A stretch of DNA of 62,845 nucleotides from the NCBI GenBank assembly GCA_020351835.1, contig CP070669.1, positions 1,157,682-1,220,526 of the forward strand, written 5' to 3'. This document shows, piece after piece, positions 22,384 through 55,118 of the stretch. The translations under genes were made by a program, and so were the position numbers. Below the pieces are notes generated by a model. The model did no database searches, was not told the origin of the DNA, and saw nothing but the letters and a program-made list of their open reading frames with translations. The DNA is from Nitrospirota bacterium. Lineage in GTDB: Bacteria > Nitrospirota > Thermodesulfovibrionia > Thermodesulfovibrionales > BMS3Bbin05. Position 1 is the first letter of the stretch. Every line of letters begins with the position of its first letter.

Positions 22384-22422
22384 ACAAAAAAGCCGTACGG
22401 CCCCGGGGCTCGAACGGCTTTT
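22384..22422 (-). terminator. Rho-independent terminator after rpmE
   Basis: The minus strand reads AAGCCGT-tcgaGCCCCGGGGCcgt-ACGGCTT followed by a T-run. It lies in the 101-nt gap between rpmE and the DUF1385 gene. Confidence 0.6.
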
Positions 22423-22435
22423 GATATCTTTATAT

Positions 22436-22642
22436 CTACTTGTCTTTTTTAGCGTATTTCTTCTTGAACTTATCCACTCTACCTTCGGCGTCAACTATCT
22501 TCTGCTTGCCGGTGAAGAACGGATGGCACTGTGAGCATATATCAATATGTATGGACGGAGTTGTGGATTTTACCTCGAACGACTCCCCGCACGCGCAAAC
22601 CACTTTTGACTCCTTGTAGTCCGGATGAATACCCTCTTTCAC
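22436..22642 (-). CDS. rpmE: 50S ribosomal protein L31 (Zn-ribbon type)
   Basis: MKEGIHPDY...CACG...[20 protein letters not shown]. Confidence 0.95.
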
Positions 22643-22717
22643 AGTTGAAACCTCCTTCTAGCAACGATCTGAACCATTATTATAGTAAATAGATAGCGAA
22701 TATGGCAATAGTGAATG

Positions 22718-24112
22718 TTATCCAGAAAGGGCAGTAGAAATTGCAGTAACTATTTGATTTATTTGCGATGTAGATATGGTCATGACATCGAGAACCAGGC
22801 GGTCATCGCTGATCCTTGCGATCACAGGCGGGTTGCTCTTCCTTAAGCGCTCCTCAATTGTATTAACGGAAATCTTATGGGGAATGACAGAAACGGTCCA
22901 GGTAACGAACTCGGCGTCAGGCAGGGAGCCTCCGCCCGCCCGGGTGATATCCTTCCTGATGCTTATATCTGCCTTGACCCCGGCCTTTTTCAATGCTGAA
23001 GAGAGCCTCCGCGCCCTTATTTTAAGTGCTTCGTTCGAAGAATACAGCATCTTCAGTACCGGGATCCGCCGCTTTGCCAGCTCCTGATCTGCGTATATCA
23101 TGAAAACGGACTCCAGCGCCGATAACGTGAATTTGTCTACCCGCAAAGCTCTCGTTAAAGGATGTTTCTGTATACTCTGGATCAGGTCCTTCCGACCGAC
23201 AATTATACCGGCCTGCGGGCCCCCAAGAAGCTTATCACCGCTAAAGGTTGTAATATCTATCCCCGACCTGACAATGTTCTGTACCATAGGTTCATCATGA
23301 ATACCAAGAGGGTTCAGGTCAACCAGGCAGCCGCTTCCCAGGTCGTACATCGATACGATACCGTTCTTCTTGCCCAGAGCGGACAGATCGTCAACGGATA
23401 CATCTGATGTGAAGCCGCTGATCCTGAAGTTAGAACGGTGGGCCTTAAGCAACAGTCCTGTGTTCTCATTTATTGCAGCTTCGTAATCTCGCAGGTGCGT
23501 CTTATTAGTAGCACCAACCTCTTTAAGAATTGCACCGCTCTGCTCCATTACTTCAGGTATACGGAACGAGCCACCTATCTCTATAAGTTCGCCCCTTGAT
23601 ACGATTGCCTCTTTGCCCCTTGCAAGCGCGCTTAAGCATAGTAGGACGGCCGCGGCGTTGTTGTTCACTATGAGGCAGTCCTCGGCACCGGTTATCTCAT
23701 TAATAAGTTCCCTTATGTGTGAGTATCTTTTCCCTCTGGCACCCTTATCAAGATCATATTCGAGATTGGAGTACCCTTCAGCTACCTTCATTACGTTCTG
23801 AAGCACGTCTTTTGGCAGGGGGGCCCTTCCCAGGTTCGTGTGGATCACTATACCGGTTGCATTTATCACAGGTCTAAGGTTAGGGCTCAGCAGAACATCA
23901 AGAGAGCTAAGCACCTCTCTGATAATATCGTCCGTATCTACCCTGACCTGAGCACCCGAGCGTATCCTTTCTCTGTTATCATCTATCACTTTCCTGGCAG
24001 CCATAAGCCCGAAAGCCCTTGGGTATTCTTTTAAACGCTCTTCGATAAGTTCGTTCTTTATTATCTGGTCAACGGAAGGGAGGTTTCGTAATAGAGATCG
24101 TTTGTCATCCAT
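22718..24112 (-). CDS. selA: L-seryl-tRNA(Sec) selenium transferase
   Basis: LLRNLPSVDQII, VINATGIVIHTNLGRAP, NNNAAAVLL, GGSFRIPEVM and the PLP-lysine context FSGDKLLGGPQAG are present. Confidence 0.92.
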   Translation of the reverse strand: MDDKRSLLRNLPSVDQIIKNELIEERLKEYPRAFGLMAARKVIDDNRERIRSGAQVRVDTDDIIREVLSSLDVLLSPNLRPVINATGIVIHTNLGRAPLPKDVLQNVMKVAEGYSNLEYDLDKGARGKRYSHIRELINEITGAEDCLIVNNNAAAVLLCLSALARGKEAIVSRGELIEIGGSFRIPEVMEQSGAILKEVGATNKTHLRDYEAAINENTGLLLKAHRSNFRISGFTSDVSVDDLSALGKKNGIVSMYDLGSGCLVDLNPLGIHDEPMVQNIVRSGIDITTFSGDKLLGGPQAGIIVGRKDLIQSIQKHPLTRALRVDKFTLSALESVFMIYADQELAKRRIPVLKMLYSSNEALKIRARRLSSALKKAGVKADISIRKDITRAGGGSLPDAEFVTWTVSVIPHKISVNTIEERLRKSNPPVIARISDDRLVLDVMTISTSQINQIVTAISTALSG

Positions 24113-24148: not shown

Positions 24149-24628
24149 TTAGTGCGACAGGTCCGTCAGGCCGACAATTTTCCTGATGAACCGCTTAATG
24201 AATGGTAACTTGTTCAGGGCCGGGGTGAACATCTCTTTCCTGCAAATAAGATATTTTAACGGGAAGTGAAGATGAAGCAAAAGTGCCCGCCCGTTCACTG
24301 TGGATACTTTTCCGAGGACATTACTAAGCGGGATGATGCCGTCATCTTCAATTAAGGCATCTCCTCTTGTGACAACGCCGTCAGGAAGTATACGGATTAT
24401 CCGGTGAAGGAGGGGCATGTCATTTAATTGTCTTAGCAGGATCACATCACCTGTCTTCAGAGGAGAGCTTACAGGCATAACCGTGACGGTATCTCCCTCA
24501 ACTATGAAAGGCTCCATGCTGTCCCCGGTAGCAGAAAATCGAAGGTGATGCTTACCCGAAATTAGATCCTCGGCGATCTCAGAAAAAACCCTGCTGTCAG
24601 TAATGTCATATATATTGTGATCATTCAT
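24149..24628 (-). CDS. Soluble ER/archaeal-type (S26B, SipW/Sec11-like) signal-peptidase-fold protease, candidate RiPP leader peptidase
   Basis: All four S26B boxes are present: GDSMEP, GDVILL, LLHRII (His replacing the Lys general base) and TRGDALIEDD. No hydrophobic N-terminal anchor precedes the catalytic Ser. Confidence 0.6.
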   Translation of the reverse strand: MNDHNIYDITDSRVFSEIAEDLISGKHHLRFSATGDSMEPFIVEGDTVTVMPVSSPLKTGDVILLRQLNDMPLLHRIIRILPDGVVTRGDALIEDDGIIPLSNVLGKVSTVNGRALLLHLHFPLKYLICRKEMFTPALNKLPFIKRFIRKIVGLTDLSH

Positions 24629-24630
24629 CG

Positions 24631-25557
24631 CTATGACAATATTTCCTTAACGAAATCAAAGATATTATGATCAGGGTAAAAATGAAGGTCATAGCAGGGC
24701 ACATTGCTTATAAGATCGTCGCAAGATGAAAGGATACCTGCGACCGCCTCCCTGTCAAACCATGGGGAGGATACCGCCGGGAGTAACCTCTCTATAGCAT
24801 CAATTGGCGATATCTCATTTGCGATGTTCTCTGTCCCGTGATGAATAAAGAACAGACCACCTACCTCAACCTTAGAATTAGATGCAATGCCTTCCTCTCC
24901 CGGCCAGGGGGTCCCGTAAGCAAGATATCCTTTGCCGTTGCTTCTTATTACTACGCGGTCATCACTAAGGAGAGGTTCCTTTGATCTCTCTGCGATAAGT
25001 CTTGAGATGGTGCTTTTCCCTGACCCCGAACGCCCTGCAAATATGAGGCCCCTATTATTGATCGATGATCCTGCTGCATGCACAATAAGACCCCTTCGGT
25101 TCGATAGATAATACATCAGTAGTATCTGGTCCAGAGGGTATCTGACAGGATTGGCCGATATAATGTCAGGCGCTCCCTCGATGATAAATCTTTCATCGCA
25201 TTTGATAGACACTTCATCATTATCGCCGTTCATTTCAGCGACAAGAAGAATGTCGTCATGCCCCGTGCCGTAGAGCTTTATATATGAGCTTCCGCTGTCC
25301 CTGTAAAAGGACCAGGAGGATCCGTTATCGAACAACATGGGGATATCAGTCATGTCCGGAGGGTCGCTTATATCTACTGATATGCTCAGGTCGTGATCCG
25401 TAATATGGTCGATAGTGCTAAAGAAGGGGCCATAGCACGGATCATTTTCGAGCAGTTCAGATATTCCCTTCAGCTTCAGTAGTGATCTTACTCCTCCAAT
25501 ATCAAGTATGTAAGATGCAGGCATTACTTCCGGGGTTATGACCCGGGGCTTGAACAA
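24631..25557 (-). CDS. HPr kinase/phosphorylase C-domain-like (HprK-related) P-loop kinase
   Basis: LIVHAAGSSINNRGLIFAGRSGSGKSTISRLI....LLSDDRVVI matches the HprK catalytic-domain pattern. The likely true start is ATG 25524 (GGAAG SD), 11 nt after the precursor stop, rather than TTG 25557. Confidence 0.7.
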   Translation of the reverse strand: MFKPRVITPEVMPASYILDIGGVRSLLKLKGISELLENDPCYGPFFSTIDHITDHDLSISVDISDPPDMTDIPMLFDNGSSWSFYRDSGSSYIKLYGTGHDDILLVAEMNGDNDEVSIKCDERFIIEGAPDIISANPVRYPLDQILLMYYLSNRRGLIVHAAGSSINNRGLIFAGRSGSGKSTISRLIAERSKEPLLSDDRVVIRSNGKGYLAYGTPWPGEEGIASNSKVEVGGLFFIHHGTENIANEISPIDAIERLLPAVSSPWFDREAVAGILSSCDDLISNVPCYDLHFYPDHNIFDFVKEILS

Positions 25558-25718
25558 TTATTAAGTGTGCAAGGGGATCCCAGAGGAGCAGAGCCCCCGG
25601 CCGAGAGCTTACATCCTACGGCCATGATCTCTTCAGCAGCCAGGTCTATCTTCCTGAGAGAAGGTTTTTCATAGGTTCTTTTAGGTGTATCTTCTGTTTT
25701 CCTGTCAGTGTTCATCAA
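25536..25718 (-). CDS. RiPP precursor peptide candidate (59-60 aa; YxxPxL leader, 3-Cys core, C-terminal Ser)
   Basis: (M)MNTDRKTEDTPKRTYEKPSLRKIDLAAEEIMAVGCKLSAGGSAPLGSPCTLNNCSSPGS. It is wedged between the rSAM/SPASM gene (5-8 nt gap) and the kinase gene. ATG 25715 follows TTG 25718. Confidence 0.6.
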   Translation of the reverse strand: MMNTDRKTEDTPKRTYEKPSLRKIDLAAEEIMAVGCKLSAGGSAPLGSPCTLNNCSSPGS

Positions 25719-25723
25719 CTATA

Positions 25724-26800
25724 TTATAGCTCATTATTAATTAATTGAAAACGATGCGAACCAAGATCGCACAGATATTTTGACCGCTCACTTTCAGAAC
25801 CTGTCTCAAGCTCAGCAAAGCCAGGGCATATCCCACACAATGATCTCTTATTGCAGCTAGTGCAATCCGACCCCGGGTCGGCCAGTTTGCCCTTTATCTG
25901 TGAGCTTATACTCTGCCAGCCGGCACTGAAACTTCCTCTATTGAGGTCATAGCTAATATGCCGGGTCATAAGACATGGTTTAAGGTTCCCTGAAGCATCT
26001 ATGTGGAAGTTGGTAGAGCCGGCACCGCAGGAATACAGGTTCTTAGACGGCCTAAGTCCTTTAAACTTATTATAGTGCTTCCTCCACTGATCAATTCTGG
26101 CGGGATCCGAAAATTCCATTTCCACTGCTGTTCGGGGAGATATCCTCAGGTCCATCGGACCTTGATCACCATTCAGGCGGGGAAATATAGCAGGATCGAG
26201 CCTGAACGGTGCTCCGAACCGTCCTGCTGTTCTCCGTATCTCAAAGAGATCATCCGCGTTAAGGGACATAAGTACCGTCTTAAGCTTAACATTAATACTT
26301 GATGAGACAAGAAGCTCGATCCCCTGAATGCAGCGCCTGAAAGATCCAGCGATGCCCGTGATCGACTCATATACCTTCTGTGACGAACCGTATAGACTGA
26401 TCTCGACGGATGCAGGAGGATAACTTTTCAACAGATCGGCGATCGCTATATCGACCAGGGTGCCGTTAGAGAAGACCGATACCAGAAGGCCCCTCATTTT
26501 TGCATGAACATATATCTCCCTGAAATCTTTTCTTAAGAGAGGCTCGCCCCCGGTTAATAGCAGATGTAAACATCCGGATTCGGTTATTTCGTCTATTATC
26601 TTACAAATTGTTGAGGTGTTCATCTCGATCGTTTTGCGTTCCCGGCCATCAGAAATGTAACAATGTGAACATCTCAGATTGCAGGAGTCGGTAAGGTCTA
26701 TGCTGCCGGATAAAGGGACCTTCTGTTCAAATACTTTTTTGCTAAAATCCCTGAGAAAGGCCTCATCACTAAGCCAGGAAGTCTGTTCACAGGAGTGCAT
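25724..26800 (-). CDS. Radical SAM / SPASM-domain peptide maturase
   Basis: CNLRCSHC (CX3CX2C), GGEPLL, and the C-terminal CGAG...C...CTSCNKRSLCGIC...C auxiliary Fe-S cysteines are present. Confidence 0.88.
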   Translation of the reverse strand: MHSCEQTSWLSDEAFLRDFSKKVFEQKVPLSGSIDLTDSCNLRCSHCYISDGRERKTIEMNTSTICKIIDEITESGCLHLLLTGGEPLLRKDFREIYVHAKMRGLLVSVFSNGTLVDIAIADLLKSYPPASVEISLYGSSQKVYESITGIAGSFRRCIQGIELLVSSSINVKLKTVLMSLNADDLFEIRRTAGRFGAPFRLDPAIFPRLNGDQGPMDLRISPRTAVEMEFSDPARIDQWRKHYNKFKGLRPSKNLYSCGAGSTNFHIDASGNLKPCLMTRHISYDLNRGSFSAGWQSISSQIKGKLADPGSDCTSCNKRSLCGICPGFAELETGSESERSKYLCDLGSHRFQLINNEL

Positions 26801-27120
26801 TATGTGGTCTCCTCGATCAGGCCTTCTCCCAGCAGATCATCTATGAGCTCTTTAAGGTCTCTTTGAGCAACATCGAGGCCTACATCAAATTCCTTAAGGA
26901 CGGCATCAAGCACCGAACTCATGCTGGAACTTCCATCAAGACTGTCCCAGATGAGCTCGGACACCGAGGACAATGAGAATATCTTTTGCATATCGGCCAG
27001 ATTGCCATGAACAGGAACAAGGAACATCTCGCCAGCTATCTTTCGCGAGACGATATTGTCCCTTCTCCTGAACTTTTTTTCGGAAAAATTATCTGTCAGA
27101 TCCAAATGACTATACCTCAA
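26800..27120 (-). CDS. PqqD-family peptide chaperone (RiPP recognition element)
   Basis: IVSRKIAGEMFLV..., FSLSSVSELIWDSLDGSSSMSSVLDAVLKEFDV....AQRDLKELIDDLLGEGLIE is a typical PqqD pattern. Its stop overlaps the rSAM ATG by 1 nt. The TTG start lies 1 nt after the stop of the giant gene. Confidence 0.8.
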   Translation of the reverse strand: MRYSHLDLTDNFSEKKFRRRDNIVSRKIAGEMFLVPVHGNLADMQKIFSLSSVSELIWDSLDGSSSMSSVLDAVLKEFDVGLDVAQRDLKELIDDLLGEGLIEETT

Positions 27121-27121
27121 T

Positions 27122-30100
27122 TCAGTGAACTATCAGAGCAGGATCTCCAAGGAGATTGTATATATATATCATAAAGGGATCCATTCCTTTGTCGCTATAC
27201 CCCTTAAATGCTTTGATTATTATATCACCGATCGCTGAGTTATCCGAAGTGCCATCAAACAGGGCTTTATAGAACTCTCCATTGAGAGTAACCGCTCTTG
27301 AGTTAATTGATAGACCGGCCGGGGACCAGACGGCCACAGCGCCACCTTTAGGCTTTATGGAAAGCAGCTCACCAAGAGAGTCATGACCGGGAAATGCGAA
27401 CTGCCCGACCATGCACGTCAATGCGTTGAAGACAGGGAGCCTCGTATTTTCTTCAAGTGTCTCAATATCACCGGAGATCAGCAGGCCTTCGTCCGCGATG
27501 CGGTCGAGACCCCCGTGGCCAATATAATTGACCATATCGATGCCATTGTTCAGGGCATCCATAACAGCATTATGTACAACTGCCGGGGAACTCTCAGAGA
27601 GATAAACCTTGTCCATTTTATAGTAATGCGGAAATAGCGTAGAAATGCTGTCACTGTCCACGGAGAAGTCGGCGCCATCCGATGGATCATCAGCAATGAA
27701 AAGTACTTTCTTCTGAACCGGCGATAATGATTCATAGGAGATTATCTTATTTATCACGGCACCAAGCTCTTTATCAGAGACAACGGGTAAGCGACCAATG
27801 GCAATATCAGGAACGTTATCTCCCGATAGGTCAGCAAAATAATTATCTGAGGGGAACAGCCCGTTAGGCGTACTTATCATTGCTGTCGGGATCAGGTTAT
27901 CGTCTGTCCCCAGATAGTTCTTGTAGTCAAAAGTTCCCTCACCCACCAGCACGACATATTTGGGACTTAGGGCCCAGTTCTTTACTGAATATGACAGGAA
28001 CCTGCGTATAGTTTCTGGATCATATATCCCATGATTAAACTCGTCCATAATATCTTCAAGGTCAATTATCATCGGTGTGTATCCCTGTCCCTTACGGTGC
28101 TCAGCCAATGCCGAAGAGGCTTCCTTAAGCTGGGAAGGAACGATCAAGATGTAATCAGCCCTGTTATGTCTCGATCTAAGTGAAGAAGCGCTATCAGCCC
28201 ACATTGCGGGTTCGTTTACGGAGCCCCTGGATATAGCGATATAGTCGCGGCCGCTTGATACCGGTGAGAAGCTTATACTGTATCCATTATCGGCCATTGC
28301 AATGTTAGCCCCGGTTATAAGTAACGGTGATGGAGGCTCGGTAACATCCATCAGCATGATATCCGGTGATGAGAACCCTTCAACAGTTAAGACCTTATCT
28401 TTATTTGAACTGAATGCCAAGACGTCATTTATAGCTACGTAATTTCTCATATAGCGGATGGCAAAAGAATCTAAATAGAAGATGCTGTATGGAGCCCCGG
28501 TATCAAGTGATCCATTGATACTCAACATATTATCCCCGTCATTGAAAATATCACTGTCAAAGTAAAGCTCTACACTATGGGGCCTTGTGCCGTCCCATGA
28601 GGTTTCACCTACAGGGATGCCGTTTATGGATATTGCCGCATGATGATCAATGGCTGAATCGACATCGGTAGCTCCCATAAGATGTATCGACAATGATGCC
28701 GTGGCAGATACATTAGACAGGCCGGGAGTCGAGAAGTTGAAGGAGGTCTCACCGTTTCCTGCTACCACATATTGCCACAGCCAGTAATCGCTTGATGGTT
28801 CATCAAAGAGCGCTGTCGCCGGGAAGTTGTTCTCTTCATATCTGATCTCATCAGCGAATGATCGAGTGCCGTAAGCAGACAAAGGATCATTTCCGCTGAC
28901 GGTCCGGATCGTCTTGCCCTTTCCTGTTCCGATCCAGTAAACGGTCTGATTTGAATAAATGCTTTCAGGCGCCTGGCTATAGAAAAAGATACCGTTACCT
29001 TCTTCTGCCCGATGATAGGCTATCGGGGCCCCTTTATGGGATATCGATATTAATGCATTACTGATAAGGTCCTTCATCCTGCTCAAGGGTATCTTAAGAA
29101 GGGATGATAATGTGCCGGCATCAACGAAATTGAGACCATTGCTCCTGATCGAGACCTTTACACTGTTACCTCTTCTGGTTCTCTTCATAAGCCTCGCGAG
29201 TTCTCTCAGCCTTCTTGCCTCCTCAATGCGAGCCTGCTTGTGGTCAGTTATTGCGTGAGGCATGCTTACATACTTCAGGGTTGCAGCAGACATCCCTTCT
29301 GATCCAGGTCGGAGAACATCAGTCGGTGATAACTGTTCATCACGGTGATCTGCGGTTACCAGAGGTTGCCGGTCCTGCAATTGAATATCAGGACCATTTT
29401 CGATAGATCGAGGCTCGCTCTCGTCGACAAGAAATGTCTTTACCAGCTGTTTTATCCTCACTCTTCTAAGAGCGCTCTGTTTGTCCGTTATTATTATTGT
29501 CCCTTCATCATCAACAAAATGTATTACCTCGTCCTCTATCTCCTTGTTGAAAGCCTGCTTTGAGTTCGGTTCGTCAGGATAAGAGCCGGCTATGCTTATT
29601 GACCCATTAATGTCTATTGTGTATGGACCGAACATCCGTTCGTTCCCATTTTGCTCTACCTCGACCAGGACATATGTATTACTCCCGGTTGTCGATGCTT
29701 CGGGGTCAACAATTTTGTATTTGCCTCCCTGTTGAGAAGTCATTAAGCCCGGCAACAATGTCTCATTTACCCTCTTATACCTGCCTGAGCTCAGGTCATA
29801 GCGTAACACATGAAAACCTACCGTACCCGACTCAGATGAGGTCTCCCATTCGACAGAGATATTGTCACCATTCCTGTTCGCACCAAACGATGAAACGACT
29901 GCCTGCGTGAGAATGATGGAATCGCAGACTGTGCTGCTTATCGATCCAAGGACCCAGTCCGCTTTATCATTGGTATCATTGCCGGCCGGGGAGCGTTCGA
30001 TAGCGTACCCTATGGTCATCCCGGCAACATTCTTAAAGGAGTCATCCTGCCAAATGTTCGCGGTTACAGCCGCCGAGTCATCGCCCAGAAAATCAACAGA

Positions 30101-33073
30101 CGGTGAAAGTGTAGCGCTCCAGCTTACATAATCCTTGATCGCACTTGATGGGTCGTATAGAGATATCTGGTCTGCCCTGTTCTCATCTAAAGCAGCCCCC
30201 GGATCACCAAAACTATCCGAAGGAAAAGACGGGGAGGATGTATCAAACACATAATATATCCCACTACTATAGTAGTCCGTAGGAGCGCTTGCCGTATCAT
30301 AGAGAGAAAGGATTATGCTCTCACCGGACTGAAGCGTTATGGAAGGGATCGTATAACTGAACGAGTCCTCGTCGGTTAGAACGTAGTTAGTAGCATCAAA
30401 CGGATTAGGGGAAGAGTTATATAGTTCTATATACTCCGTCTGGCAGGTCGAGTTGTCCGGATAGAAAAGGATGCTGTTGATCACAAGGTCCGGCGCGTTG
30501 TAACTGGCAGTATCTGTTTTGATATCATTCCCTGGATTTGAATCTGAGTCGTCACAGTCTGTATAAGCTGCATCTATATCATTTCCGTTCGAGACCTCAA
30601 TGACGAGATCGTTCGTAACGCTTGCCCCGTCGTAAGTCGAGGTCATCAACGGACTTGCGGTGAAACTTATTGCAGTCCTGCTCGCTGAAAGAGAGGTTGT
30701 CAGCGTTATCTGGGTCTCACTGTCTACAGTTGCTACGGTATAAGTACCTTCGTCAGGACCGTTGGCAATAACGAACGTGTCACCTGCCGAAACTCCATCT
30801 GCCTGGAATGTAGATGATGCTGAGGTTACCACTGCAGAACCTGCAGTAGTTACCAGGTCGTTCTCGCGGTTCATATATTCACCTGAGCCGGCAAATGTTT
30901 CATACAGAGTGATCGTTTCCGAATCACCATCCGGGCTCGTTACTGTTGCAGTTACGGTCTCTATACCCGGCGGTGTTTCGGTGGTCGAGCACGCGTTGTT
31001 ATCAACCACCTTTATAAATACCGGTTCATTAGGAGCGTATAAACTTATATCCTGGGTGCCCGCGCCGTTCATAAAAGCGACCCTCCCGGCCCCTACCGTA
31101 GAGAACAAAGAGGCGGTTGAAGATACGGTGTAGGGCGATCCAGTGCAGATTGGATTTGATGATGTATAAATATAGTCAACTGTTACAACCCCGCCGTCTA
31201 CATCTTCCCATAGGTCATCATCAAGCTCACCTCCGGAGACATCTATGCCATTTGTTATCATGGTCTGAAGTCCGTCATCTCCAAGTGTTGCGTTCGTATT
31301 TCTGAACTCGCCGGTATCATTTCCTGTTTCGACCAGAGTAAGTGTTTCACTGTCAACATTGAGATTGCACGTTTCGACCCCGGGACAATCGCTATCCTGA
31401 GAGCAATAGGTGGTAAAAGTGGTCGAACAGAAGCCAAGTGTTCCGGTCAGTGTTACCGTAATTGTCTCCTGGCTAGCAGGGCTTGTATTGGCCTCTGCGT
31501 GGATCACGTTCACGTACATCTGGTCGGATGTTGCCGGGTCCGAAGTAATGGAGTAACTTGTTACATCGATCCCATTGGCTCGAGAGAACTTGATGGTAGC
31601 GCCGCAAGCATCGATTATGTCCGCATCATCCGTTACTGTTATGGAATTAGGATTAGTGTATGAGACATATATAACATCTCCATTGTTGATCTCAAGGTCC
31701 TGATCATTATCGGTTCCCGGATTAGACGAGCTTGAGATGCACGTACTGATGTCGGACGCGCAGTTCTGGTTGGTGAATATCCCTGTCAACGGACCGGTCT
31801 CGACCAGATTAACGGTCTCATCATCGCCTGTTGTCGGATTGGTCATGGTCACGGTTATGGAATCTATGACGCCTCCATTGCATGAATCCCCTGCACCGGG
31901 GCAGTCTGCGTCCGTTTCGCATGATGTAGCGGTATCTATCTCGCAGAATCTCCCCGTTTCTGCGGCCGGGTCCTTAACGTAGGTATAAAGGTTGTCCGTA
32001 ACAGTATAGAAGTCAACAAAGTTCAGTGAAGAATCGGTAAACTCTATGATAGGTTTCCCGTTGGGATAGACAATGTCTCCGAATGTGATAGGGTCCGAAT
32101 TCGATATGTAGTTAAGGTCCATCATATGGTCCTTCTGGAGAGGGTCCTGGTTCGAGGCGCCTGTCGAATAAACAAAGGCAACCGGAGAATCCGGCCATAG
32201 AACCTGATTGCCGTTACTGTCATTGAACGATGTCATCGGAACCTGGATCTCGATCCAGTAATCACCCGATCCGTCTGTAGTTGGAACTATTCTCGTATGG
32301 GACATCCCTGTCGGATCACACATAATGGTGCACGTGTCGGCACCCGGACAGTCTGAATCGACCCGGCAACCTTCCGGGTCGGGGTCGCTGAGAGTGGATG
32401 TGCAAAGGCCTATGTTATCAACATCGTTCTGTGCCTGAAAATGATCGACCCTTACTCCTGCGGCATCCGGGTCACTGATATCCTGCTGGTTAGAATTGTC
32501 ATAGAGGACATTGAGGCGGTCATAGGTGTTATCGCAGTCCGTGTTCGAACATGATCCCTCAAGATCTACCCAGTATTCCTTGTATCCGTCACCGTCAACG
32601 TCGATCAAAATATTCCAGTGGTATGATTTAAATGCGGTACCGGGGTTGCCCCCGTCGTTTGGGTCGCCCGTGACCCTCATCCTGAAGAATATTACATCGT
32701 CCTCCATTGTAGAGGGGTCTGCAGGGTCGTAGGGAGTTCCTCCATTATAGTATCCGAAGGACGGCGTAGATTCCGATCCGGGATTAGTCACAGCGTCTGC
32801 ATAAGAGGCCAGGTCAGTTGCAGCGGGTGTAACATTTGCCTGGCCACGAGTTGGATCACCAGAACCCACGGCCTCATAGTCGCTTATGATCTGGCCCTGA
32901 TAAGTGTAATCAGTTATAAATCCCGGGTTATTGCTGAATGAGCTCCAGTCTATAGCACATCCGGCAAAGTCAGCATATGAGTTTATAGAACTAAATGCTA
33001 CTAGTAAGAATATCAGTGCAAACGTGCATAGAATGCCGCTTATGCTTTTTGTCTTCCTAAAGAACTTCATCAT
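27122..33073 (-). CDS. Giant secreted multidomain protein (about 1983-1990 aa) with an LTD (lamin-tail) domain and a C-terminal peptidase C25 (gingipain-like cysteine protease) domain
   Basis: The signal peptide is MMKFFRKTKSISGILCTFALIFLLVAFSSINSYA/D, starting at ATG 33073 with an AAGGTG SD; the track start GTG 33094 is also possible. An LTD-like segment (VINSILFYPDNSTCQTEYIELYNSS...ADQISLYD) lies at about 30100-30495. The C25 region at about 27125-28170 has ADYILIVPS, IAIGRLPV, NYIGHGG (His codon 27515-27517) and FNALTCMVGQF (Cys codon 27413-27415). Confidence 0.85.
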   Translation of the reverse strand: MMKFFRKTKSISGILCTFALIFLLVAFSSINSYADFAGCAIDWSSFSNNPGFITDYTYQGQIISDYEAVGSGDPTRGQANVTPAATDLASYADAVTNPGSESTPSFGYYNGGTPYDPADPSTMEDDVIFFRMRVTGDPNDGGNPGTAFKSYHWNILIDVDGDGYKEYWVDLEGSCSNTDCDNTYDRLNVLYDNSNQQDISDPDAAGVRVDHFQAQNDVDNIGLCTSTLSDPDPEGCRVDSDCPGADTCTIMCDPTGMSHTRIVPTTDGSGDYWIEIQVPMTSFNDSNGNQVLWPDSPVAFVYSTGASNQDPLQKDHMMDLNYISNSDPITFGDIVYPNGKPIIEFTDSSLNFVDFYTVTDNLYTYVKDPAAETGRFCEIDTATSCETDADCPGAGDSCNGGVIDSITVTMTNPTTGDDETVNLVETGPLTGIFTNQNCASDISTCISSSSNPGTDNDQDLEINNGDVIYVSYTNPNSITVTDDADIIDACGATIKFSRANGIDVTSYSITSDPATSDQMYVNVIHAEANTSPASQETITVTLTGTLGFCSTTFTTYCSQDSDCPGVETCNLNVDSETLTLVETGNDTGEFRNTNATLGDDGLQTMITNGIDVSGGELDDDLWEDVDGGVVTVDYIYTSSNPICTGSPYTVSSTASLFSTVGAGRVAFMNGAGTQDISLYAPNEPVFIKVVDNNACSTTETPPGIETVTATVTSPDGDSETITLYETFAGSGEYMNRENDLVTTAGSAVVTSASSTFQADGVSAGDTFVIANGPDEGTYTVATVDSETQITLTTSLSASRTAISFTASPLMTSTYDGASVTNDLVIEVSNGNDIDAAYTDCDDSDSNPGNDIKTDTASYNAPDLVINSILFYPDNSTCQTEYIELYNSSPNPFDATNYVLTDEDSFSYTIPSITLQSGESIILSLYDTASAPTDYYSSGIYYVFDTSSPSFPSDSFGDPGAALDENRADQISLYDPSSAIKDYVSWSATLSPSVDFLGDDSAAVTANIWQDDSFKNVAGMTIGYAIERSPAGNDTNDKADWVLGSISSTVCDSIILTQAVVSSFGANRNGDNISVEWETSSESGTVGFHVLRYDLSSGRYKRVNETLLPGLMTSQQGGKYKIVDPEASTTGSNTYVLVEVEQNGNERMFGPYTIDINGSISIAGSYPDEPNSKQAFNKEIEDEVIHFVDDEGTIIITDKQSALRRVRIKQLVKTFLVDESEPRSIENGPDIQLQDRQPLVTADHRDEQLSPTDVLRPGSEGMSAATLKYVSMPHAITDHKQARIEEARRLRELARLMKRTRRGNSVKVSIRSNGLNFVDAGTLSSLLKIPLSRMKDLISNALISISHKGAPIAYHRAEEGNGIFFYSQAPESIYSNQTVYWIGTGKGKTIRTVSGNDPLSAYGTRSFADEIRYEENNFPATALFDEPSSDYWLWQYVVAGNGETSFNFSTPGLSNVSATASLSIHLMGATDVDSAIDHHAAISINGIPVGETSWDGTRPHSVELYFDSDIFNDGDNMLSINGSLDTGAPYSIFYLDSFAIRYMRNYVAINDVLAFSSNKDKVLTVEGFSSPDIMLMDVTEPPSPLLITGANIAMADNGYSISFSPVSSGRDYIAISRGSVNEPAMWADSASSLRSRHNRADYILIVPSQLKEASSALAEHRKGQGYTPMIIDLEDIMDEFNHGIYDPETIRRFLSYSVKNWALSPKYVVLVGEGTFDYKNYLGTDDNLIPTAMISTPNGLFPSDNYFADLSGDNVPDIAIGRLPVVSDKELGAVINKIISYESLSPVQKKVLFIADDPSDGADFSVDSDSISTLFPHYYKMDKVYLSESSPAVVHNAVMDALNNGIDMVNYIGHGGLDRIADEGLLISGDIETLEENTRLPVFNALTCMVGQFAFPGHDSLGELLSIKPKGGAVAVWSPAGLSINSRAVTLNGEFYKALFDGTSDNSAIGDIIIKAFKGYSDKGMDPFMIYIYNLLGDPALIVH

Positions 33074-33361
33074 TGACACCTTTATAACTGCCACATATAT
33101 AAGGACAGTTATTTCATTATATCAAATAAAGAAAGCAATTACTATGCCAAAGCAAAAAACATTAAATATCGGTCATATACGCTACCAATTAATAATAGTT
33201 AGGACAAATTATGTTATATGATGCTTAATATATACCACAAACTTCCCAATAAATGTGTATAAAATAAGTAAACATTATTTGTGGGAAGCGATTCCAAACG
33301 TTAATTCTTTGGAGGATGAAAAATTGACGGGCTACCTTATTTATTATAGAATCTATCCAAT

Positions 33362-34678
33362 ATGAAGATTCACTTAGCTTTATTATTAATCCCGTTCTTG
33401 CTCCTGTCGTGCGCCACTTCCGGAAGCAAAGGTGCGGGGACCGAAATGGATGAGCACAACATGATACGGGTTCCGGAGGGATGGTTCCTGATGGGTTCTG
33501 AGACAGGAGAGGTAAATGAGAGGTTTGCCCACGAGGTCTTTCTCGATGCGTTCTACATAGACTCCAATGAGGTCACAGCGAGCGACTTCTCGAAGTTCCT
33601 TAATGATAAGGGGAATGATGATGAACGGTTCTTTTCGGCAAATGAGCGCTCGACAATAACATTGTCAGGATTGCTATATTCACCCAGGGATGGGTTTGAA
33701 ATGTTCCCGGCAAATAATGTTTCATGGTATGGCGCTGATGAATATTGCCGTTGGGCAGGGAAAAGACTCCCTACAGAGGCGGAATGGGAAAAGGCCGCTA
33801 AGGGGATAGATGAGAGGACATATCCATGGGGGTTCTCAGAGCCCGATGATCGAAGGGCCCAGTACGGTCAGGACTGGGAGGAAAAAGGAATGGATGTTCT
33901 CGTCCCTGTGAGGTCCTTCCCCGGAGGAGTTTCCTATTATGGTGCGCATGATATGGCCGGGAATGTCTGGGAGTGGACGGGGGACTGGTACAGACAGAAC
34001 TATTGTGATTATTGTGATCCATCTGGGGGCGACTACGAAAAGATCGCATCCGAGATACTTGGAGAGGAGCCTTCGGATATTGCTACAGATGCACAGGCTC
34101 CTCCAAGAAGAAATCCCGTTGGCCCGTCAGTCGGGGCTTTCAAGGTACTGAGGGGAGGCTCATGGGATGATGATTCGGGTAATACGATAAGAACAACTTA
34201 CAGGTATTGGCTGGTGCCGTCCGAAAGGTTCAGTGACACGGGGTTCAGATGTGCATCGACCGACCTGCCCGTAATTCAGCCTATTATCGTGACACCGGCT
34301 GAACCGGTAGAAGTGATCCCGGAGTTGCCTGAGTTCGATCCTATCTTCTTTGACTTCGATAAGTACGATATCAGGGAAGATGCCAAGCCTACACTACAAA
34401 AGGTATTCGACTGGATGATGGCTTACAGTTCAGCGAGAATGGTCCTTCAGGGTCATTGCGACGAGCGTGGTTCGAACGCATATAACATAGAGCTTGGAAA
34501 GAAGAGGGCACGAACGGCAAAGGCATATCTCATAAGTATGGGTGTAGAGCCCGACAGGATGGATATCGAGACACATGGAGAGGACAGCCCGTTCTGTTTT
34601 ATTAAAAGTCTTGCCTGTTGGCAGTCTAACAGAAGAGTTCATTTTGTTCCTCAGTTCCGGGAAGATGGGAATAGGTAG
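33362..34678 (+). CDS. Lipoprotein fusing a formylglycine-generating-enzyme (FGE/SUMF1) fold domain to an OmpA/Pal-like peptidoglycan-binding domain
   Basis: It has a lipobox (LLLSCATSG). FGE motifs are MIRVPEGWFLMGS, NNVSWYGADEYCRWAGKRLPTEAEWEKAA, AGNVWEWTGDWY and VLRGGSWDD. The OmpA_C segment is FDFDKYDIRED....LQGHCDERGSNAYNIELGKKRARTAKAYL. Confidence 0.8.
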   Translation: MKIHLALLLIPFLLLSCATSGSKGAGTEMDEHNMIRVPEGWFLMGSETGEVNERFAHEVFLDAFYIDSNEVTASDFSKFLNDKGNDDERFFSANERSTITLSGLLYSPRDGFEMFPANNVSWYGADEYCRWAGKRLPTEAEWEKAAKGIDERTYPWGFSEPDDRRAQYGQDWEEKGMDVLVPVRSFPGGVSYYGAHDMAGNVWEWTGDWYRQNYCDYCDPSGGDYEKIASEILGEEPSDIATDAQAPPRRNPVGPSVGAFKVLRGGSWDDDSGNTIRTTYRYWLVPSERFSDTGFRCASTDLPVIQPIIVTPAEPVEVIPELPEFDPIFFDFDKYDIREDAKPTLQKVFDWMMAYSSARMVLQGHCDERGSNAYNIELGKKRARTAKAYLISMGVEPDRMDIETHGEDSPFCFIKSLACWQSNRRVHFVPQFREDGNR

Positions 34679-34726: not shown

Positions 34727-35179
34727 ATGAAGAAATTAGTTGTCATATTGATTTCCCTTCCTTTATGCTTACTCCCGGTTGTGCATGCTTACCCGGCAGA
34801 AAATGTGCCTGCAGATAAAACAGCCAATACCTGTTCGCTGATAAAGGAGAAGATCGATGCCGGTATTGATATAACTGCGACGATAAAGACGAGCATTCAG
34901 ATGGGTTTCGATACATGCTCAATGATCAAATGCTCTATCAAGAACAACGGTGACCTGAAGCAGGTCATTGACGGTGCTGTACAGGCAGGCATGCCTACCG
35001 AGGTCATTGCCCGTTGCGCGATAGATGCGGGTGCAGATCCTCAAACACTGGCAGGTATTTTGGCCGATACCGAGAAGTTCAGTTTATGCTATCTACCGCC
35101 GAGAGATGAGGTCATTCCGGTGGGGGTATCCTTTCCAGGCGGGCGTGATAACCGGTCATTAAGCCCCTCTGTCCCTTAA
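34727..35179 (+). CDS. Secreted hypothetical protein
   Basis: It has a signal peptide (MKKLVVILISLPLCLLPVVHA/YP) and an Ala/Gly/Ile-rich, helical-repeat-like sequence. No family was recognised. Confidence 0.45.
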   Translation: MKKLVVILISLPLCLLPVVHAYPAENVPADKTANTCSLIKEKIDAGIDITATIKTSIQMGFDTCSMIKCSIKNNGDLKQVIDGAVQAGMPTEVIARCAIDAGADPQTLAGILADTEKFSLCYLPPRDEVIPVGVSFPGGRDNRSLSPSVP

Positions 35180-53236: not shown

Positions 53237-55118
53237 AGTTGTTGATATCAGTGGTTCAGTCAGGTCCGGTATCCTGAGGAACAGGCATATTATCTTCATA
53301 ATAATATTCGTATTTCAGGTCGTCGTATCGAATTACCTTGCATTTCTTCTGAGGTTCGATTTTCTTCTGTCAGAACTGTATCTGTATGTGTTCACTTTAT
53401 ATCTTCCCCTGCTCATATTCGTCAGACTGCTGTCTTATCTGATCTTTGGTCTGCACAGGGGGGTCTGGCGCTATGCAGGGATTAAGGACCTGAGCAACAT
53501 AATACTTTCTGTAACTGTCGGGAGTATCTTTTTCGTAATGGTAGTAAGGATCATCTTCGGTGATACAAGTTATCCGAGATCGGTATATTTCATAGACTGG
53601 CTTTTGCTGATCATTCTGTCCGGAGGGGGAAGGATGGCTGTAAGGGTATTCAGGGAGTATGTTTATGCCGAATCCAAGGGAAAGGCGGTTCTGCTTATCG
53701 GAGCAGGGGATGCCGGGGAGATGATTGTAAGGGACATGAGAAGCAATCCTGATAATCCTTATAACCCGGTCGGTTTCATAGATGATGATAAGTTCAAGAA
53801 AGGCCTTTCTATTCATGGTGTGCCTATATATGGTCCAAGGGATATTATAAGCCAGGCGATAAAGGATACTGATCCGGATGAGATACTGATAGCAATTCCT
53901 TCTGCGAGCCACTCAACGATAAACGAGATATTCGAAAGTTGTAAGCAGTTTAATCTTCCGGTTAAGACGCTGCCCGGCTTGTCAGATATCCTTGACGGGA
54001 AAGTTACGGTTTCCCAGATAAGACCATTGTCCCTTGAGAACCTGTTGCAGCGCGAACCGATACGGACTGACATAAGATCAGTTAAGGATTATCTTAAGGA
54101 CAAGAAGGTCCTGGTGACCGGGGCTGGCGGGTCAATAGGCTCGGAGCTATGCCGGCAGATATTCAAGTACGGTCCCTCGTCCCTCATAATGTTGGACAGG
54201 TATGAGAACGGTCTTTTTGATATTGATATGGAATTGAACCGAAATAAAAGGGAAAATGCTACGTCTGTTAAGACATCAGCGGATATGGTAATCCATCCCA
54301 TCGTGGGTGACCTAAGGGACAAAGGGGCCCTTAGTATGATGTTCGGTGAGCACAGCCCTCAAATAGTGTTCCATGCGGCTGCACATAAACATGTACCTTT
54401 AATGGAAGCAAATCCGATCGAAGCTATAAAGAACAATGTGTTTGGAACGCGGAACCTGATAGACATAGTAAAAAAGAATAATGTAGAGAGCTTTGTTATG
54501 GTATCTACCGATAAGGCTGTTAACCCTGCGAACGTAATGGGAGCAACCAAGAGAATTGCTGAACTAATGACAATAACTAGCAATGAGGGATCAGTGACCA
54601 AGTTCAAGACCGTGAGGTTCGGGAATGTGCTGGGGAGCAATGGAAGCGTCGTAAATATATTTCAGGAACAGCTTGAGAGGGGAGGCCCGTTGACCGTTAC
54701 AGACCCTGAGATAAAAAGATATTTTATGCTGATACCCGAAGCTGTTCAGCTGGTATTAATAGCATCAGCTACCGGAGATGGTGGGGATGTATATGTTCTG
54801 GACATGGGGGAGCAGATAAGCATAAAAGAAATGGCCGAAAACCTGATCGCTCTTTCGGGTTTTATTCCGTATGAAGATATCGAAATTGACTACACAGGCC
54901 TAAGGCCGGGCGAGAAGCTATATGAAGAGCTCTTCGATGATACTGAAAAGATAGAAGGAACGTCACACTCAAAGCTTAAAAGGGCTGTGCCGGTTGAACT
55001 GCCGACGCGTGAAGAGCTTGAAGAGCATCTTGGAGCATTAGATAAGGCTATATCAAATGGTCAGATGAAAGATATAGATAAGGTCTTAAGAGAGATGGTC
55101 CGTAGCTACAAGAGATGA
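53229..55118 (+). CDS. Membrane-anchored UDP-sugar 4,6-dehydratase (CapD/PglF/WbpM family)
   Basis: It has four N-terminal TM helices, two Rossmann motifs (LLIGAGDAGE and VLVTGAGGSIGSEL) and MVSTDKAVNPANVMGATKR. Confidence 0.9.
   Translation: MARVVDISGSVRSGILRNRHIIFIIIFVFQVVVSNYLAFLLRFDFLLSELYLYVFTLYLPLLIFVRLLSYLIFGLHRGVWRYAGIKDLSNIILSVTVGSIFFVMVVRIIFGDTSYPRSVYFIDWLLLIILSGGGRMAVRVFREYVYAESKGKAVLLIGAGDAGEMIVRDMRSNPDNPYNPVGFIDDDKFKKGLSIHGVPIYGPRDIISQAIKDTDPDEILIAIPSASHSTINEIFESCKQFNLPVKTLPGLSDILDGKVTVSQIRPLSLENLLQREPIRTDIRSVKDYLKDKKVLVTGAGGSIGSELCRQIFKYGPSSLIMLDRYENGLFDIDMELNRNKRENATSVKTSADMVIHPIVGDLRDKGALSMMFGEHSPQIVFHAAAHKHVPLMEANPIEAIKNNVFGTRNLIDIVKKNNVESFVMVSTDKAVNPANVMGATKRIAELMTITSNEGSVTKFKTVRFGNVLGSNGSVVNIFQEQLERGGPLTVTDPEIKRYFMLIPEAVQLVLIASATGDGGDVYVLDMGEQISIKEMAENLIALSGFIPYEDIEIDYTGLRPGEKLYEELFDDTEKIEGTSHSKLKRAVPVELPTREELEEHLGALDKAISNGQMKDIDKVLREMVRSYKR

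Follow-up and report, generated by a model that had tools for sequence, protein, structure and literature searches.

A six-gene unit on the minus strand of a Nitrospirota chromosome joins a gene for a giant secreted protein, which ends in a C25-family cysteine peptidase domain, to a five-gene cassette of the kind that makes peptides synthesized on ribosomes and then modified post-translationally (RiPPs): a PqqD-type RiPP recognition element (RRE), a radical S-adenosylmethionine (radical-SAM) enzyme with a SPASM region, a short precursor peptide, a ScmC/HprK-like kinase and an S24/S26-like peptidase. The unit runs from position 33094 down to 24149 of a 62,845-nucleotide stretch (the window) of contig CP070669.1 (assembly GCA_020351835.1, positions 1,157,682 to 1,220,526). 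We conclude from a comparison across genomes that the cassette is almost certain to act jointly with the giant C25 protein, in a system that has not been described before and is probably one of the cell surface.

Among characterised systems, the linear polyphosphorylated peptide (LPP) pathway that Bacillota encode as LppA/B/K/S/N/D comes closest to the cassette (Popov et al., Nat Commun 2026, PMC13381572). In that pathway LppS, a soluble homologue of archaeal-type signal peptidases with Ser, His and Asp as its catalytic residues, takes off the leader, but only if it is presented by the RRE LppB; one Ser is polyphosphorylated by LppK, an HprK-like kinase; the cluster further includes an NTP_transf_5 enzyme and an MsbA exporter; and the clusters are embedded in capsule loci (PMC13381572). 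The cassette described here shares with LPP a discrete PqqD-type RRE, an HprK-like kinase, a soluble S26B leader peptidase of the Ser/His kind, a YxxPx[LV] leader motif, an association with a polysaccharide locus and an NTP_transf_5 partner, although the last lies 28 kb away rather than in the cluster. LPP clusters, however, have no radical-SAM enzyme, Cys-rich core or C25 protein, and their MsbA-like exporter and NTP transferase have no counterpart in the six-gene unit. Whereas LppK targets Ser3 of a 45-residue core, the conserved Ser here is the last residue of a core of ~25 residues. Of the LPP leader consensus YxxPxVLxHQxIxFETxxS only YxxPx[LV] is shared; in place of HQxIxFETxxS the leader here continues with IELAAEEVLAVG (R-x-I-E-L-A-A-E-E-V-L-A-V-G). 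The radical SAM/SPASM enzyme and the three conserved Cys of the precursor argue that the product, unlike that of LPP, is not simply linear.

Clusters for phosphorylated and phosphoglycosylated lasso peptides such as paeninodin and pseudomycoidin also encode HprK homologues, which phosphorylate the C-terminal Ser of the precursor, and their NTP transferase may be fused to the leader protease (PMC8498205). They have in common with our locus the YxxPxL leader, the PqqD-like RRE and an HprK homologue, predicted here to act on a C-terminal Ser, and one related locus (L042) carries a fusion of the S24/S26-like peptidase to NTP_transf_5 that parallels the lasso fusion. The B2 transglutaminase-type protease and the C macrolactam synthetase, or lasso cyclase, are not in the unit, which has instead an S26B-type leader protease, a radical SAM/SPASM enzyme and a C25 partner. 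The SynChlorMet cassettes (ScmC/D/E/F) likewise combine an HprK-like ScmC-family protein, a PqqD-like protein and radical SAM/SPASM enzymes, and the ScmC family PF27840 covers the kinase here. They have two radical-SAM enzymes to the one found here, however, and C25 is not in the gene set named by the NCBIfam models. Membership in SynChlorMet (TIGR04248-04251) was considered and rejected, with scores of 24.9 against a cut-off of 125 bits for ScmC, 26.1 against 100 for ScmD, 102 against 400 for ScmE and 77 against 400 for ScmF. Finally, the nisin cluster encodes NisP, a Sec-exported surface subtilisin that removes the leader and is accompanied by an exporter. NisP thus offers a case of a Sec-exported surface protease encoded in a RiPP cluster, one that acts on an exported peptide; in our locus a cytoplasmic leader peptidase is already present, the protease takes the form of a PorU-like C25 module carried by a giant adhesin-like protein, and there is no conserved exporter.

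The C25 module itself is best compared with PorU, a sortase-like transpeptidase that cuts the C-terminal signal off its cargo and links the resulting C-terminus to an amine on anionic lipopolysaccharide (PMC4560394, PMC8545088). PorU is the best match in both sequence and fold to the conserved C-terminal 720 residues of the giant protein, with the His/Cys dyad kept, and its joining of a cleaved C-terminus to the amine of a surface glycan could serve as a mechanistic template for the C25 module. In contrast to PorU, the module here is the C-terminal part of an adhesin-like protein of 1.1-3.4 kaa in non-Bacteroidota hosts, and a link to a RiPP cassette is not known for PorU. A search of ~8.4 million full texts found no paper linking C25 or PorU-like proteins with radical-SAM, PqqD or ScmC genes, in line with the suspicion in a preliminary description of this locus, made from the sequence alone, that such a linkage had not been described. 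The LPP paper mentions neither C25 nor PorU-like proteins (PMC13381572).

Linkage and shared history of the cassette and the C25 protein

The preliminary description had proposed that the cassette is coupled to the giant C25 gene and had called for a check of co-occurrence in other genomes. Among 401 Nitrospirota genomes scanned, a cassette-type kinase (E below 1e-56) is present in 15, and in 12 of these, the source genome included, the same contig encodes a C25 domain at a distance of 1.5-1.9 kb. The remaining three sit at contig ends and are compatible with adjacency: one contig opens with the tail of a C25 gene (G270), one locus is split over two contig ends (G310) and one contig stops right after the PqqD gene (G384). 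At the level of genomes, the co-occurrence of kinase and C25 is highly significant (Fisher p = 2e-14).

A survey of named species, with one genome per species, extended this result. A single radical-SAM protein used as query against genome contigs found no related loci, but a profile built from the ScmC alignment did, giving 302 genomes with a relative, of which the best 80 loci were examined. Leaving out 19 loci in which the contig reaches no more than 1.9 kb upstream of the kinase, a C25 domain lies beside the cassette in every one of the 61 loci with a usable flank, so that homologues are linked in every informative locus and the proposed coupling is strongly supported. The 80 loci come from Nitrospirota/Thermodesulfovibrionia (40), Desulfobacterota including Desulfosudis oleivorans and Desulfocicer (17), Planctomycetota (5), Acidobacteriota including Aminicenantes and Thermoanaerobaculia (5), Lentisphaerota (4), Verrucomicrobiota (3), Kiritimatiellae, Chloroflexi, Acidimicrobiaceae and Tritonobacter (1 each) and others (2), and the linkage spans at least eight bacterial phyla. 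Where the genes are co-directional (56 loci), a median of ~8 nt separates the C25 stop from the first possible PqqD start.

Public data yielded at least 628 relatives of the kinase, and every kinase-centred neighbourhood that we looked up, in Nitrospirota, in a Planctomycetota metagenome-assembled genome (MAG) and on a 3.6-Mb Thermodesulfovibrionales chromosome, has the C25 giant and the same gene set within differing flanks. Starting from the other side, where there are at least 492 relatives of the C25 module, all three look-ups show the cassette: in Syntrophobacter fumaroxidans MPOB, in a Thermoanaerobaculia MAG and on a 7.4-Mb contig, on which the C25 gene is convergent to the cassette. 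S. fumaroxidans MPOB places the locus in a cultured strain. Its genes (L046:9001-14966; CP000478.1, ~4.866-4.872 Mb) encode the C25 protein, PqqD, the radical-SAM enzyme, a 71-residue precursor (...YEKPTV...ATGCK...C...C.GVGS) and ScmC, with hyp genes immediately behind; no S26-like peptidase gene is found at this C25 locus, and like the source locus it falls below the SynChlorMet cut-offs. In the Thermoanaerobaculia MAG (L047:13022-20461) the C25 gene is convergent on a composite cluster with NTP_transf_5, a lasso-type Transglut_core3 protease, two PqqD genes, a radical SAM/SPASM gene and ScmC; in the S26-like protein of this locus the Ser nucleophile is replaced by Cys (GDCMAP).

The linked loci show at least five gene orders and orientations, and the rearranged loci retain the same gene set. 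The C25 gene lies between kinase and peptidase in L010 and behind the peptidase in L011, L051 and L094; the peptidase is in front in L020; L076 has divergent halves, L117 is permuted, and L048 is also rearranged. A Ste24/HtpX-like M48 peptidase gene stands downstream of the cassette in ~15 Thermodesulfovibrionales loci (e.g. L006:11432-12592, L009:11480-12760 and L040:11958-13220), not in the source window. We considered it as a functional partner and rejected it: its identity is 64-69%, whereas that of the cassette is ~40%, and it was not seen in other lineages, so we read it as conserved synteny.

The preliminary description had named independent phylogenetic distributions as an outcome that would speak against coupling, and we found the opposite. 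The linked C25 domains form one clade, with SH-aLRT support of 100 for the core and 89 when L010 and L011 are included. Outside it fall six unlinked C25 proteins of the same phylum, Leptospirillum-like and from other families, around which no cassette lies within 6 kb. Pairwise distances correlate at r = 0.93 between C25 and radical-SAM, 0.92 between C25 and ScmC and 0.91 between radical-SAM and ScmC (0.86, 0.85 and 0.83 in the core set; Mantel p = 2e-4), and well-supported subclades are identical in both trees. C25 and cassette thus co-vary like the cassette's own enzymes.

The dependence between the two is one-sided. Related five-gene cassettes with PqqD, radical-SAM, precursor, ScmC and peptidase genes occur in genomes without any C25 (L036 to L042), and a linked-clade C25 without a cassette was never seen in the loci and genomes surveyed. 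The cassette therefore appears to be self-sufficient, whereas the C25 clade depends on the cassette. In four of the C25-less loci (L038, L039, L040 and L041; e.g. L038:11340-12377 and L040:8420-9418) the peptidase is fused to a GNAT acetyltransferase, and in L042 (L042:10714-12216) to NTP_transf_5; neither fusion was seen in C25-linked loci. Since a GNAT enzyme would cap an amine, its restriction to loci where C25 is absent hints, if faintly, at the importance of a free amine. Three further loci of Nitrospira type without C25 (L043-L045) have three radical-SAM genes, PqqD, ScmC, an S26-like protein, NTP_transf_5 and longer, Cys-rich precursors ending in Ser; these may be nearer to the curated SynChlorMet cassette.

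The PorU-like module, the cassette enzymes and the precursor

The giant gene (27122-33094, minus strand) encodes a protein with Pfam matches to the lamin-tail domain LTD (3e-11) and Peptidase_C25 (2e-80), and is the sole C25 gene of the 2.29-Mb, single-contig source genome. Its translation predicts a Sec-type signal peptide, MMKFFRKTKSISGILCTFALIFLLVAFSSINSYA↓D (32972-33073, minus strand), with comparable N-termini in relatives. The N-terminal passenger that follows is variable: here it includes the lamin-tail domain (PF00932, residues 865-992; 30119-30502, minus strand), and in relatives, whose total length ranges over 1.1-3.4 kaa, other adhesin-like repeats such as SdrD_B and CLIPPER/DUF11 and sometimes an extra S8 domain (Peptidase_S8 on P0148, P0168, P0181 and P0182). 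Many giants share a motif behind the signal peptide, (A)PAGYSEY[YF]IPGDE (L061, L073, L086, L095, L097 and L106), and a second class, to which the source protein belongs, opens with ...F(A/N)(G/D)CAIDW... at this point. One Planctomycetota giant (L008:595-8637) has two C25 domains, the second very divergent, and its locus has no separate PqqD gene and a radical-SAM protein of 372 residues.

The C-terminal part is the conserved one. It opens with an Ig-like beta-sandwich (residues 1063-1161; 29612-29908, minus strand) that is conserved in all relatives by tblastn and has a pLDDT of 85-92 in an AlphaFold2 (AF2) model. The model, which covers residues 1040-1990 (pLDDT 82, pTM 0.81), continues with a disordered linker (residues 1165-1272) and a PorU-like module (residues 1275-1990; 27125-29272, minus strand) made up of beta-rich domains and, at the extreme C-terminus, the C25 catalytic domain. 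Peptidase_C25 (PF01364) matches residues 1648-1987 with 271 bits, far above the gathering cut-off of 23. The catalytic dyad is present: His1860 (NYIGHGG; 27515-27517, minus strand) and Cys1894 (ALTCMVGQF; 27413-27415, minus strand) align with the His and Cys of PorU and Kgp, and both are invariant in 33 sequences.

The preliminary description had assigned the module a gingipain fold. Its membership in the C25 family stands, but PorU is the closer match in fold and sequence, and gingipains align over the catalytic part only. The best sequence match in the PDB is PorU (6za2), and the top Foldseek match is the same structure, latent PorU, with an E-value of 2e-30 over ~800 columns, compared with only ~370 for gingipains. 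At the same time, the giant protein is by sequence not a member of the curated PorU family. Over the last 610 residues the NCBIfam model for the PorU sortase that belongs to type IX secretion systems (T9SS; NF033707) gives 5e-79 and 266.1 bits, below its cut-off of 420; no family of T9SS C-terminal domains matches, the protein ending with the catalytic domain; and the hosts are non-Bacteroidota. The T9SS protein SprA (TIGR04189) has no match in the source genome, but control genomes were equally silent.

None of the cassette proteins reaches the cut-off of any NCBIfam model. The RRE gene (26800-27120, minus strand; Pfam PqqD 4e-12) has the lasso PqqD chaperone as its nearest model. The radical-SAM enzyme (25724-26800, minus strand; Pfam Radical_SAM 9e-22) has a CX3CX2C motif at Cys40/44/47 and seven C-terminal Cys in the SPASM region, at positions 258, 276, 313, 316, 322, 325 and 344; its best NCBIfam match is the mycofactocin maturase, at 114 of the 265 bits required. 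By sequence, the CX3CX2C motif, the seven-Cys SPASM region, the Cys-bearing core and the partner RRE fit it to the radical SAM/SPASM peptide maturases, and because no curated maturase model reaches its cut-off, no named subfamily applies.

The kinase gene (24631-25557, minus strand) carries the precomputed Pfam family PF27840 (ScmC) along with weak matches to Hpr_kinase_C in Pfam and to ScmC in NCBIfam. It is single-copy in the source genome, in the same unit as the single C25 gene, and its likely start is ATG 25524. Its protein has a Walker A motif, GRSGSGKST, from residue 175, which is invariant across homologues together with the DDR motif. The AF2 model (pLDDT 91.7) finds HPr kinase/phosphatase and PEPCK as top Foldseek matches. 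The peptidase (159 residues; 24149-24628, minus strand; Pfam Peptidase_S24 2e-6) is of the S26B type, Sec11/SipW-like and soluble, with Ser37 (GDSMEP), His75 (LHRI) and an RGD...DD box; it has no transmembrane segment, which bears out its initial description as anchor-less. Its NCBIfam match to archaeal-type signal peptidase I has an E-value of 1e-10, its best PDB match is SEC11C, and the motifs GxSMxP, HR[IV] and GDx..D are kept in 28 homologues, one of which has Cys for Ser.

The precursor gene is a 60-residue open reading frame (ORF; 25536-25718, minus strand) with no family match, and a gene stands at the same place in all relatives. The precursor has 59 residues from ATG 25715, with a leader ...YEKPSLRKIDLAAEEIMAVG and the predicted core CKLSAGGSAPLGSPCTLNNCSSPGS. 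The family comprises 94 distinct sequences, all with the leader motif [Y]xxPx[LV] followed by ...EEVLAVG. The leader/core border is marked by C[KR] in 91 of them, with Gly at position -1 in 73 and Ala, Gly or Ser at position -3 in 84; exactly three Cys are present in 90, the core is 20-32 residues long, and the sequence ends in Ser in 91 cases and in Thr in the other 3. Type I signal peptidases prefer small residues at -1 and -3. The pattern of the precursors fits this rule, and the predicted cut site is A-x-G↓C-K. Two loci have two precursor copies: L117, and L019 of one Nitrospirota genome, where a second, nearly identical gene (L019:17360-17458) lies ~10 kb from the cassette.

Possible roles of the peptide and the C25 module

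In the mechanism that we favour, the PqqD-type RRE would bind the YEKPxL leader, the radical-SAM enzyme would cross-link the three conserved Cys, the ScmC/HprK-like kinase would phosphorylate the C-terminal Ser, and the S26B-like peptidase would cut at A-x-G↓C-K to release a core of ~25 residues with a free N-terminal Cys-Lys. The freed peptide would then meet the PorU-like module outside the cytoplasm and serve as its dedicated substrate or partner, an outcome to which we give slightly less than an even chance. This builds on the first hypothesis of the preliminary description, in which the C25 protease processes the modified peptide or is regulated or inhibited by it. The likeliest chemistry would be cleavage or transpeptidation in the manner of PorU, with the free amine of the peptide receiving a protein C-terminus; the alternative would be that the peptide is simply trimmed. 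The cell envelope or the exopolysaccharide (EPS) layer is the probable setting. A bolder form of this mechanism makes the peptide a ribosomal linker rather than a natural product that is set free: the amine of Cys-Lys would be the acceptor in a PorU-like transpeptidation and the phospho-Ser would be joined to a glycan, possibly through an NTP_transf_5 enzyme, tethering the giant or other proteins by covalent bonds to the EPS or envelope. We regard the linker as a rather doubtful proposition. If true, it would amount to a T9SS-independent system for attaching proteins to glycans in at least eight phyla.

Several points weigh against a direct encounter of peptide and C25 module. A chief weakness is that the cross-linking, the phosphorylation, the cut site and the action of C25 on the peptide are each inferred. 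The giant protein scores below the PorU cut-off and shows no match to a T9SS C-terminal domain, and sequence cannot separate transpeptidase from hydrolase activity of its C25 module. The other chief weakness is that the conserved gene set has no exporter; an MsbA-like ABC gene adjoins the cassette in only three loci (L037, L090 and L094), of which only one shows a C25 domain, and in L037 it stands beside the kinase. A cytoplasmic peptide would therefore have no evident route to a Sec-exported protein. The precursors of C25-linked and C25-less cassettes look alike, with no mark of a C25 substrate in the peptide. Tight linkage would, moreover, suit co-regulation without direct contact as well.

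Such co-regulation is the core of one rival explanation, in which peptide and giant protein are separate parts of a common envelope, EPS or biofilm function and C25 acts on other proteins. It would account for cassettes that exist, and presumably work, without C25, and for the fact that neither an exporter nor a peptide signature ties the peptide to C25; EPS export genes also recur within 10 kb of linked and unlinked cassettes, as LPP clusters lie in capsule loci (PMC13381572). We nevertheless think it unlikely, given that the C25 clade is never apart from the cassette in the 61 informative loci and in 14 of 14 Nitrospirota genomes sampled, that the linkage outlasts rearrangements such as the insertion of the C25 gene between kinase and peptidase in L010, and that C25 and cassette co-evolve as tightly as the cassette enzymes do among themselves. 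Co-regulation alone rarely produces so strict and asymmetric a linkage over eight phyla. A dedicated latency factor, inhibitor or chaperone, in the form of the matured cross-linked peptide, would instead shield the cell from the C25 module until export, or tune the activity of the module. Models for such a role are the staphostatins, operon-encoded inhibitors of staphopains, and prodomains supplied in trans. The asymmetry, with a protease that needs the peptide and not the reverse, and the translational coupling fit a protease/inhibitor pair; the peptide could stay cytoplasmic where no exporter is at hand, the conserved Lys that follows the first Cys might fit into an S1 pocket, and the closest structure is that of latent PorU. 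Near-identical peptides in C25-free genomes, however, imply that inhibition of C25 is not the basic role of the family, a Sec substrate, being unfolded as long as it is cytoplasmic, has little need of an inhibitor there, and a maturation line of five genes is heavy machinery for this purpose. We therefore judge an inhibitory or chaperone role quite improbable.

The preliminary description had also suggested that the peptidase or the kinase acts on the giant protein, by analogy with SipW and TasA. SipW-type peptidases process specific matrix proteins in Bacillus, a case that the LPP paper also cites (PMC13381572), and adjacency and translational coupling would suit a peptidase acting in this way or a modification by the kinase or radical-SAM enzyme. 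Signal peptides, however, are cut outside the cytoplasm, whereas the peptidase has neither a membrane anchor nor a signal peptide; peptidase and kinase are both present in C25-less cassettes, and the C25 locus of S. fumaroxidans lacks such a peptidase. A search for a leader-like segment that would make the giant protein a second substrate, with a hidden Markov model of the precursor against all giant ORFs, gave only E >= 0.5 and was set aside. The homologous LPP enzymes act on a small peptide (PMC13381572). We accordingly disfavour the giant protein as substrate of the cassette enzymes and consider it very improbable. The last suggestion, that the co-location is fortuitous or an accident of synteny, has nothing beyond a priori possibility in its favour; linkage in 61 of 61 loci from at least eight phyla, with differing flanks and several gene orders, and a C25 clade that co-evolves with the cassette lead us to reject it as scarcely credible.

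The usual view of RiPP pathways is that their products are free bioactive peptides. The locus described here represents a widespread, uncatalogued maturation line, composed of an LPP-like RRE, kinase and S26B peptidase together with a radical-SAM enzyme, that is obligately tied to a sortase-type, PorU-like peptidase carried by a giant surface protein. If the peptide is its substrate or a linker, this would be a new way of building or decorating the cell surface in Nitrospirota, Desulfobacterota, the Planctomycetes-Verrucomicrobia-Chlamydiae (PVC) group, Acidobacteriota and others, and PorU-type chemistry would extend beyond Bacteroidota and the T9SS. It would also suggest a function for the family of LPP-like peptides, whose final products are still unknown (PMC13381572).

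Organization of the six-gene unit and its surroundings

Reading of the ORFs confirmed the six minus-strand genes at the coordinates first proposed, and the stop of the giant gene (27122-27124) does sit 1 nt from a TTG at 27118-27120 (CAC TGA a TTG AGG). The start of the PqqD gene is better supported at the TTG at 27103-27105, which has a GAGG 8 nt upstream and leaves a gap of 16 nt to the giant gene. The tight packing thus holds, but the largest gap is 16 nt with this start rather than the ~11 nt first given, and with the better-supported starts all gaps in the unit are 16 nt or less. PqqD and radical-SAM genes overlap by 1 nt, 5-8 nt separate the radical-SAM gene from the peptide gene, the peptide and ScmC genes overlap by 22 nt (or are 11 nt apart if ScmC starts at ATG 25524), and ScmC and peptidase genes are spaced by 2 nt. 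The giant ORF has 1990 codons, as originally described, but the most likely start is ATG 33073 (MMKFFRK...), with AAGGTG just upstream and a gene call of 1983 residues in the collection, rather than GTG 33094; the protein would then have 1983 residues.

Judged from the gaps, transcription of the six genes as a single unit is plausible. The 267-nt AT-rich region upstream of the giant gene contains a predicted extended -10 promoter-like element, TGnTATAAT (33116-33124, minus strand), and a sequence scan found no terminator-like site at the gene junctions, as had been claimed. A consensus scan also returned promoter-like matches within the unit, one spanning the junction of the giant gene and PqqD (27136-27109, 9/12 consensus positions) and one just before the peptide gene (25751-25723, TTTTCA-17-TATAAT, 10/12 positions). 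With 28 such matches, close to the 20.2 (sd 4.0) expected after shuffling, they are no evidence either way, and terminator-like matches inside the unit are likewise at chance level. The 3' end of the radical-SAM gene (25723-25772, minus strand) has a terminator-like hairpin (25772-25754) and a second promoter-like match (25760-25733). Hairpin and promoter-like matches before the precursor gene might set a separate level of precursor expression, and they are consistent with chance.

A 22-kb EPS locus on the plus strand (35422-57347) starts 2.3 kb from the six-gene unit. It encodes a BBP2_2 porin, a Wza-like Poly_export protein, a Wzc-like Wzz/GNVR kinase, two Wzy_C proteins (one with TPR), a sulfotransferase, a methyltransferase, several glycosyltransferases, DegT and Polysacc_synt_2. 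Of the 80 related loci, 13 have homologous EPS genes no more than 10 kb away, and such genes also flank the C25-less L036, L038 and L039. Within the EPS locus, 28 kb from the cassette, is an NTP_transf_5 gene (PF14907, Pfam 1.8e-46; 55115-56248, plus strand), the only copy in the source genome, which would lie so close by chance in ~3% of cases. Across the 401 genomes PF14907 co-occurs with ScmC (49/53 genomes compared with 84/348; p = 3e-22). This family includes LppN and PsmN, which glycosylate phospho-Ser in the LPP and pseudomycoidin clusters (PMC13381572, PMC8498205). The NTP_transf_5 protein is a possible trans-acting tailoring enzyme for the phosphorylated peptide.

Between the two loci, the divergent neighbour of the giant gene encodes an FGE-sulfatase and OmpA fusion (33362-34678, plus strand), homologues of which lie near the cassette in L099, L103, L119, L014 and L019. 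A 150-residue ORF (34727-35179) also recurs near related cassettes. On the other side of the unit, selA starts 36 nt past the peptidase gene and is followed by rpmE (22389-24112, minus strand); both are lineage-specific neighbours. The first terminator-like site downstream on the minus strand is at 22404-22389, and read-through from the 9-kb unit into selA is possible by sequence. A near-consensus promoter-like site at 22708-22679 precedes rpmE.

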